Source of the DNA: Octopus vulgaris
Lineage: Eukaryota
DNA length: 64,000 nt
Direction of reading: 5' to 3'
Assembly: GCA_951406725.2 (NCBI GenBank)
Contig: CATOCA020000001.1
Location: forward strand, 9,982,001 to 10,046,000
In this document: positions 53,604 to 54,165 of the stretch, piece after piece
Position numbering within the stretch: position 1 is the stretch's first letter
Layout of the letters: each line of letters starts with the position of its first letter
Position numbers and translations under genes: made by a program
The notes under the pieces: generated by a model
Databases searched by the model: none
Seen by the model: the letters and a program-made list of their open reading frames with translations, nothing else
What the model was told of the DNA's origin: nothing

Positions 53604-54037
53604 TATATAACAATTTAGGAATGGCCTTAACAGGCCATTCGTCCACTAGACAGAGCAGCCATAACTCCAACCGCCAAGTAATGTAATTCGGAAATAGGTG
53701 AAAAATTAAAAACGTTTACCCTAATTCATCTTTTAGACGATGCATCGTTTCTGCGTTTTTAATGATAGACCAGCTTAATTAAATTAAATTAAGCTAATCT
53801 ACCATAGGTCACGCTTCGTCAGTAAAGAAACCTTTGGCTTAATTAGCTTAATTTAATTTAATTAAGCTGGTCTATCATTAAAAACGCAGAAACGATGCAT
53901 CGTCTAAAAGATGAATTAGGGTAAACGTTTTTAATTTTTCACCTATTTCCGAATTACATTACTTGGCGGTTGGAGTTATGGCTGCTCTGTCTAGTGGACG
54001 AATGGCCTGTTAAGGCCATTCCTAAATTGTTATATAT
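53604..54037. repeat. Inverted repeat (arms about 195 bp, 43-nt spacer) of a hammerhead-bearing element
   Basis: Arms 53604-53798 and 53842-54037, no mismatch seen. Element continues to 54130, then (TA)n. Confidence 0.95.
53730..53827 (-). ncRNA. Type I hammerhead ribozyme
   Basis: CTTTA CTGACGA AGCGT..long hairpin..ACGCA GAA ACGATGCATCGT C | TAAAAG. Stem III is palindromic. Confidence 0.8.
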
Positions 54038-54165
54038 TTACATTTTAGTCTCATGACTATTTTTCTTTTCCACTGGGCCGCTGGTAGTGATAAATGTTTA
54101 TCGAATTTTTACTACCCTAAATTGATTAATATATATATATATATATATATATATATATATATATA

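Follow-up and report, generated by a model that had tools for sequence, protein, structure and literature searches.

Head-to-head insertions with one fixed 3′ site per arm in a hammerhead repeat family of Octopus vulgaris

How two copies of a hammerhead-bearing repeat came to face each other within a TA tract, each opening and closing at its own point of the unit, is the question raised by positions 53610-54130 of the DNA considered here, a stretch of 64,000 nucleotides from Octopus vulgaris (contig CATOCA020000001.1) that we call the window and to which coordinates refer unless given as unit positions. An initial annotation had described this locus as a palindromic insertion of a 485-nt hammerhead family, in a circular phase different from that of another copy at 59364-59901. 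The palindrome itself was readily recovered, with inverted arms at 53597-53798 and 53842-54043 that are 99% complementary around a spacer of 43 nt; the only two mismatches sit in the TA run-in, leaving ~190 nt of the arms mismatch-free. Family membership needed adjusting, as the insertion has its own unit of 475 nt and represents a sister subfamily, 73.6% identical to the 485-nt unit. As for the phase, a single closed unit map does accommodate the copies, but the phase difference is itself no evidence for a circle, because an uncut linear multimer gives the same pattern. A circle is nonetheless likely on other grounds. The main pattern was absent from that annotation: each arm ends at one fixed site, which is the 'inverted copy plus tail' footprint of Penelope elements.

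The insertion is made of the 475-nt hammerhead unit placed head to head in a (TA)n target, whose left flank occupies 53192-53609 and whose right flank occupies 54131-54167; in such a tract a target duplication is not resolvable. By unit mapping, the short-ended arm (53610-53837, minus strand) covers the unit from position 298 across the origin up to a site S1 at about position 53. This arm holds a complete type I hammerhead, recognised by motif and predicted fold (53732-53826, minus strand), with a stem I TTTA/TAAA, the CTGACGA box at 53822-53816 within the spacer, a stem II of ~60 nt that starts with an A.A mismatch at its base (10.1-11.1) followed by GCGT/ACGC, then GAAA, a palindromic stem III CGATGCATCG and a GTC cut triplet (C at 53736). 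At the inversion junction (53837-53844, plus strand), four non-unit bases (53838-53841) create a local duplicate of GCTTAATT, which is also found at 53846-53853. The long-ended arm (53842-54130, plus strand) starts within the extension of stem II (unit position 337) and continues through the origin to a second site, S2 (position 151); it carries only half a hammerhead. It includes the S1 module (54000-54030, plus strand), a predicted hairpin followed by CCTAAATTGT, and the tail from S1 to S2 (54031-54130, plus strand), which closes with another predicted hairpin and CCTAAATTGATTAAT. Thus, the plus arm bears a tail of ~100 nt that is lacking in the minus arm, and the two arms stop at different fixed sites. 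These results bear out the annotated position of the whole ribozyme in the minus copy and the start of the plus copy within stem II, as well as the block order of both window copies and their diverged stems (GCGT/ACGC versus ATCTAT/ATAGAT in stem II, TTTA/TAAA versus TTTCTTA/TAAGAAA in stem I). Having one ribozyme and no full unit, the copy should lead no further and would be read as a hairpin of ~200 bp; it is likely inactive, and taken alone the locus is an unremarkable dead insertion.

Four loci on the same contig carry the identical junction and flanks, and are therefore segmental duplicates of 53610-54130; three of them hold one extra unit in the long arm, and all four were excluded from every count. 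On contig C31 (L031-L035), the region around the insertion is present at least five times, at most 3.3 Mb apart and with ~96-98% identity. A recurrent junction hot spot was considered and rejected, four of the five same-junction loci being these duplicates. A separate locus, L036, is an independent insertion whose junction lies within 7 nt of the one described here and was joined via the inverted repeat TCTACCA/TGGTAGA. In the window, the same TA tract harbours a second, unrelated head-to-head hammerhead insertion with a tailed right arm (54168-54668), which is missing from the four paralogues and so arrived later than the duplication. In L033-L035, the flank past the short arm contains a 562-nt tandem hammerhead unit with faint family similarity and a ATTGATTAAT motif. 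A further hammerhead-like motif, with CTGATGA at 4457 and a short stem II, adjoins a TA run at ~4165-4520 (minus strand). No tRNA gene was found between 52000 and 61000. An Rfam scan of the window gave no hammerhead family among 150 listed of 220 matches; those listed are mostly miRNA-like matches to TA repeats or hairpins, all under the gathering score.

The copy at 59364-59901 (plus strand, repeat and unit mapping) belongs to the 485-nt subfamily and is one-armed: with a period of 485 nt and a terminal duplication of 53 nt, it contains one unit plus 53 nt and ends at S1 in (TA)n. Its type I hammerhead (59672-59776, plus strand, motif and predicted fold) has a GTA cut triplet. An 18-nt family motif has 2298 exact matches in the 2.8-Gb genome and the intact hammerhead pattern has 414, compared to none for either reversed control, so the family is not a product of chance. 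The units, of 475-490 nt, are arranged head-to-tail with up to 14 in succession, and they are dispersed; their GC content is 0.36-0.37 and the longest open frame of the closed unit has 66 aa, which makes them non-coding. The order of the entire closed unit is retained, together with the ends, in further subfamilies that are 69-85% identical. The hammerhead core is invariant across the family except for position 4 (T or C) and position 7, and the L152-L160 subfamilies show CCGATGA in place of CTGATGA. Around unit position 215, all subfamilies keep an invariant TGGCGCGA in a poorly paired stretch, which we take to resemble the start of a Pol III box A; the unit alignment of all subfamilies revealed no convincing box B accompanying it. 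Among the listed holders of the unit, no run on record as RNA was found. Three presumed-RNA runs and a fourth, unlabelled one gave contigs that span the 485-nt unit and join its end to its start, as tandem DNA does too. In run X1, one haplotype dominates at depths of 556-8800. Locus-wide private variants showed no RNA-editing signature (A>G 3, T>C 4). Alleles shared locus-wide favour purine transitions (26 vs 12), unlike the changes confined to single units (78 vs 81; p 0.046), a lean that pairing constraints could also yield.

The covariation analysis proposed with the annotation supports the stems. The 16 sequences compared, which cover the subfamilies, keep stems I and III 100% paired, with double changes at four of the eight pairs; none of 500 shuffles scored as high on pairing and covariation, and 74 of 500 did so on the count of double-change pairs, controls that are inflated by the relatedness of the 16 sequences. 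Stem III remains close to palindromic, with TGCA invariant at its centre, and its predicted dimerisation energy is -18.7 kcal/mol, in agreement with the dimeric hammerheads described in the available text of PMC4209133. For the monomeric ribozyme, the fold is less stable than the local minimum by 7.8 kcal/mol in the 475 subfamily and by 2.1 in the 485 copy; the former value, like the A.A mismatch at the base of stem II, counts against the reading that we prefer below. The hammerhead is a predicted self-cleaving RNA. The domain between S1 and S2 is 95.7% paired in 12 sequences, with double changes in five of 35 pairs and a z value of -5.9. Moreover, each end site adjoins an upstream predicted hairpin plus a CCTAAATTG-like motif, the hairpin being conserved ~10 nt 5′ of each of the presumed start sites S1 and S2.

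An answer to the question of phase comes from the ends of many copies. When aligned to the unit and plotted, as the annotation had suggested, the copies of 122 loci (123 insertions) revealed two fixed 3′ sites and uniform 5′ ends; this sample, formed by the top BLAST hits, the first-listed hammerhead-pattern matches and two other loci, is a small and non-random part of the family. As many as 199 of 210 outer 3′ ends fall in S1 (47-67) or S2 (150-161), windows that amount to 7% of the unit, with peaks in the 485 subfamily at 53 and 157 and thus a distance between sites of ~104 nt. On the other hand, inner 5′ ends are uniform along the unit (chi-square p 0.34). Two head-to-head arms are found in 87 of the 123 insertions and a single arm in 36. 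Among the two-armed insertions, 77 pair S1 with S2 and 10 have one odd end, whereas none uses the same site twice. The rule holds in the subset picked by hammerhead pattern, blind to ends (21/26 S1+S2, 0 same-site), and in 20 added loci picked by their tail motif, where the 15 two-armed cases comprise 13 clear S1+S2 pairs, one probable and one odd, as read by eye in profile coordinates. Next to the ends, 221 of 237 family 3′ ends abut TATATATA, against a background of 6%. Flank duplications of 11-21 nt that are not pure TA occur in 14 of 120 loci (one of them internal sequence), most clearly in L036, L041 and L045. The inner junctions show overlaps of at least 2 nt in 43 of 59 cases vs 17% by chance, and inserted bases in 20 of 79. 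Microhomology-mediated joining is expected to give such overlaps and insertions. Altogether, the 'phase' of a copy is one fixed end plus a random start, and two fixed 3′ sites, combined with uniform 5′ truncation on a head-to-tail unit, account for the contrast between the copies in the window.

A comparable arrangement is found in Penelope-like elements of the same genome. The window itself contains a nearly full-length one (4588-9198, plus strand) that ends at its own S1 and has a hammerhead at 9081. Its frame at 5051-7615 encodes 854 aa with an Asn-rich insert and an apparent stop just upstream, and carries motifs which, as in its relatives, we take to be RT-like and GIY-YIG-like; intact copies of 980 aa exist elsewhere in the genome. 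A Pfam search returned no family for this ORF or for its relative L101, and a PDB search nothing for L093. The class assignment is also supported by Atlas features of the window ORF, matching RT / HTH_animal clusters, and by a weak alignment to an RVT_1/GIY-YIG protein. The autonomous family, with a unit of 4650 nt, has a similar hammerhead of long stem II and two end sites ~120 nt apart, and hence a tail of ~120 nt. In 23 of its loci, both arms are seen in 17, four are one-armed and two are cut off; 15 of those 17 combine S1 and S2, two have one odd end and none repeats a site. This shared footprint suggests that a Penelope protein would be the partner enzyme of the retrozyme. A very young Penelope-like family (L114, L231-L260), with 811-aa frames often found as inverted pairs and ending in TA, shows 100% identity over 224 aa in at least 149 of 150 listed matches, and may be regarded as a candidate for the active enzyme.

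Could such palindromes arise otherwise? Arms mismatch-free over ~190 nt and flanked by long TA runs invite the suspicion of a fold-back artefact of sequencing or assembly, whose chance we consider negligible given that the same junction recurs in four diverged segmental-duplication paralogues and that one end rule is obeyed by 87 independent two-armed loci. A fixed linear template deserves more attention: the copies would then be what 5′ truncation has left of the terminal repeat in some long, undiscovered Penelope element. Their footprint does equal that of autonomous Penelope-like elements in this genome, and the available texts of PMC4209133 and Li et al. tie such repeats to pLTRs. This we find quite improbable, as every long copy enters the unit's own end upstream of the hammerhead, up to 14 units in a row. 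No sampled locus of the retrozyme family runs on into the start of an ORF, and the unit has no ORF. The terminal repeats of 100 sampled Penelope-like loci showed no homology to the 475/485 units, the two best unit-profile matches (E 4e-5, 1e-3) falling outside the elements; those 100 loci are part of a larger diversity (14801 and 21096 candidates in the genome). The common linear template that the annotation had named as its refutation, such as a pLTR, was not found in the loci sampled. Alternatively, the first cDNA might have folded back and primed its own copying to give the inverted arm, an origin put forward for the Penelope palindromes of rotifers in the available text of PMC3846280. That would account for the short microhomology at the junctions and for the identity of haplotypes, given that both arms carry one haplotype: in the 485 subfamily, divergence between the arms of a single insertion is 0.50%, and common minor alleles are concordant in 279 cases and discordant in 14 (51 loci), compared to a between-locus difference of ~2.5% (33 loci). 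However, 26 of the 71 simple insertions have two arms that each include sequence missing from the other, so that one arm is not a fold-back copy of the other; barring unit loss after insertion in all of these 26 cases, fold-back is largely refuted for them. The insertion at 53610-54130 is likewise non-contained as it stands, though its longer paralogues would permit containment. Fold-back also leaves unexplained that the second end is the other fixed site, and we deem it improbable.

The shape of the template calls for a closer discussion. The predicted cut site is crossed by 179 of 200 arms, and two such sites by 75, with six arms stopping near one where 7.1 are expected; arms that read through the cut site point to either a circle or an uncut multimer. 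In the latter case, the same element with the same two-sided priming would be copied from the uncut linear multimeric transcript of a young array, the hammerhead being idle in copying and arrays being regrown by unequal DNA exchange. All end statistics fit this equally well, and near-homogeneous arrays exist as possible donors, such as L207 with 7 units and one variable site. In the available text of PMC11167929, uncut RNA is the main substrate and dominant template of PAc (Anolis Poseidon), the only Penelope system studied in vitro. Unit gain and loss after insertion is also demonstrated: 19 unit variants recur inside one arm, patterns of period 2, 3 and 5 run through long arrays and paralogues differ by one unit, so arrays also change once inserted, and the number of RT rounds cannot be read directly from their length. 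But the unit variants of a multimer from an aged array would be expected mirrored in both arms, and mirror-matched variants were 0 in 52 loci, with equal singleton rates in unmirrored (92/31950) and mirrored (81/27344) copies (ratio 0.97, 0.72-1.31). This favours a putative single-unit template, read repeatedly, even if a linear multimer that is very young and homogeneous would satisfy this test as well. In addition, the alleles that separate loci are fixed in all units and both arms (the 279 vs 14 above), for which a multimer would need a repeated single-unit bottleneck, and hammerhead core and stems are kept with compensatory changes across subfamilies. Copying from an uncut multimer is, to our judgement, unlikely, though it is the main competitor.

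The reading that we prefer as a whole, with a chance moderately above even, is that of a non-LTR retrozyme primed by Penelope on both target strands, likely from a circular monomer. Its parts differ in strength: a Penelope-mobilised retrozyme is highly probable, two-sided priming very likely and the circular template fairly probable. Tandem arrays elsewhere would be transcribed, and the hammerhead, probably as a dimer via the palindromic stem III, would free monomers that become ligated into circles. The Penelope protein would nick both (TA)n strands with a stagger that the flanks suggest to be roughly 11-17 nt, one 3′-OH presumably starting at S1 and the other at S2, in keeping with the pairing seen in the genome. 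Both cDNAs extend upstream past the cut site, for variable lengths of up to many units and with the same haplotype, and microhomology may then join their ends, in many cases along with short templated insertions, leaving a palindrome, a spacer and a one-sided tail. Gain and loss of units in the arrays come later. A more specific version, to which we give slightly less than an even chance, is that a dimer of the Penelope protein grips one circular RNA at its two hairpin-marked sites, making one cDNA per strand, with both enzymes circling the RNA and the products joined mid-way. If true, such a dimer-on-circle reaction would explain the tandem, inverted and tailed features of all Penelope insertions, and retrozyme circles would be true Penelope substrates, recognised by structure rather than by sequence kinship.

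Judged from its sequence, the unit has the genomic features that define metazoan non-LTR retrozymes, a known class, and its footprint is known too. As in the available texts on those elements (PMC7229834; Li, Clavereau and Pollet 2026, 10.64898/2026.07.22.740005), each unit of an ORF-less tandem of low GC (36-37%) has a type I hammerhead, and monomers to multimers are dispersed alongside Penelope-like elements; GC lies below 45-50% and target duplications, when present, exceed 4 bp, as in retrozymes. The predicted stem II of ~60 nt is unusually long for them. Both a circular template and mobilisation by Penelope were already proposed for animal retrozymes in the same two works, and the available texts of PMC4209133 and PMC7229834 suggest a circular template for Penelope tandems as well. 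In the available text of Li et al., eight of nine Xenopus retrozyme dimers were uncleaved in vitro, which counts against our preferred reading. What stands out is an unusually clean population pattern, with strict site pairing, for a known class. Fixed paired ends, present here, are not described in the main text of PMC7229834 or in the available text of 10.64898/2026.07.22.740005; the word 'inverted' is missing from the former and appears in the latter within a reference title only. Strict site pairing, single-haplotype arms and the exclusion of fold-back were not found in the literature covered, subscription papers (e.g. Arkhipova 2006) and supplements being outside its scope.

The closest likeness is to the insertions of EN+ Penelope-like elements as given in the available texts of PMC8557442 and PMC3846280, which share the head-to-head arms, partial tandem, inverted 5′-truncated copy and tail at one end, together with TA or microsatellite targets, duplications of 11-17 nt where visible and microhomology joins. 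Their tail, however, is optional and of 30-40 nt, whereas here it has ~104 nt, the pairing is strict (77 to 0) and there is no ORF; fold-back, unlike in those accounts, is excluded here in the 26 of 71 cases. The origin of tandem, inverted and tailed Penelope-like insertions is called unresolved in the available text of PMC8557442, and the population pattern turns this question into a direct experiment: a small, young and abundant family with a one-site-per-arm rule, single-haplotype arms and cut-site read-through makes sharp predictions, and its 475-nt unit is a substrate suited to the existing in vitro assay. In that assay, as reported in the available text of Frangieh et al. 2024 (PMC11167929), PAc cleaves and extends both strands of AT-rich DNA and is predicted to act as a protein dimer. 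It shares with the octopus family two internal RT start sites bounding a tail, which here are deduced from the ends. In PAc those sites are close, show no strand difference and the ribozyme is dispensable, whereas in the octopus family the sites are paired one per strand and a single-unit template is indicated.
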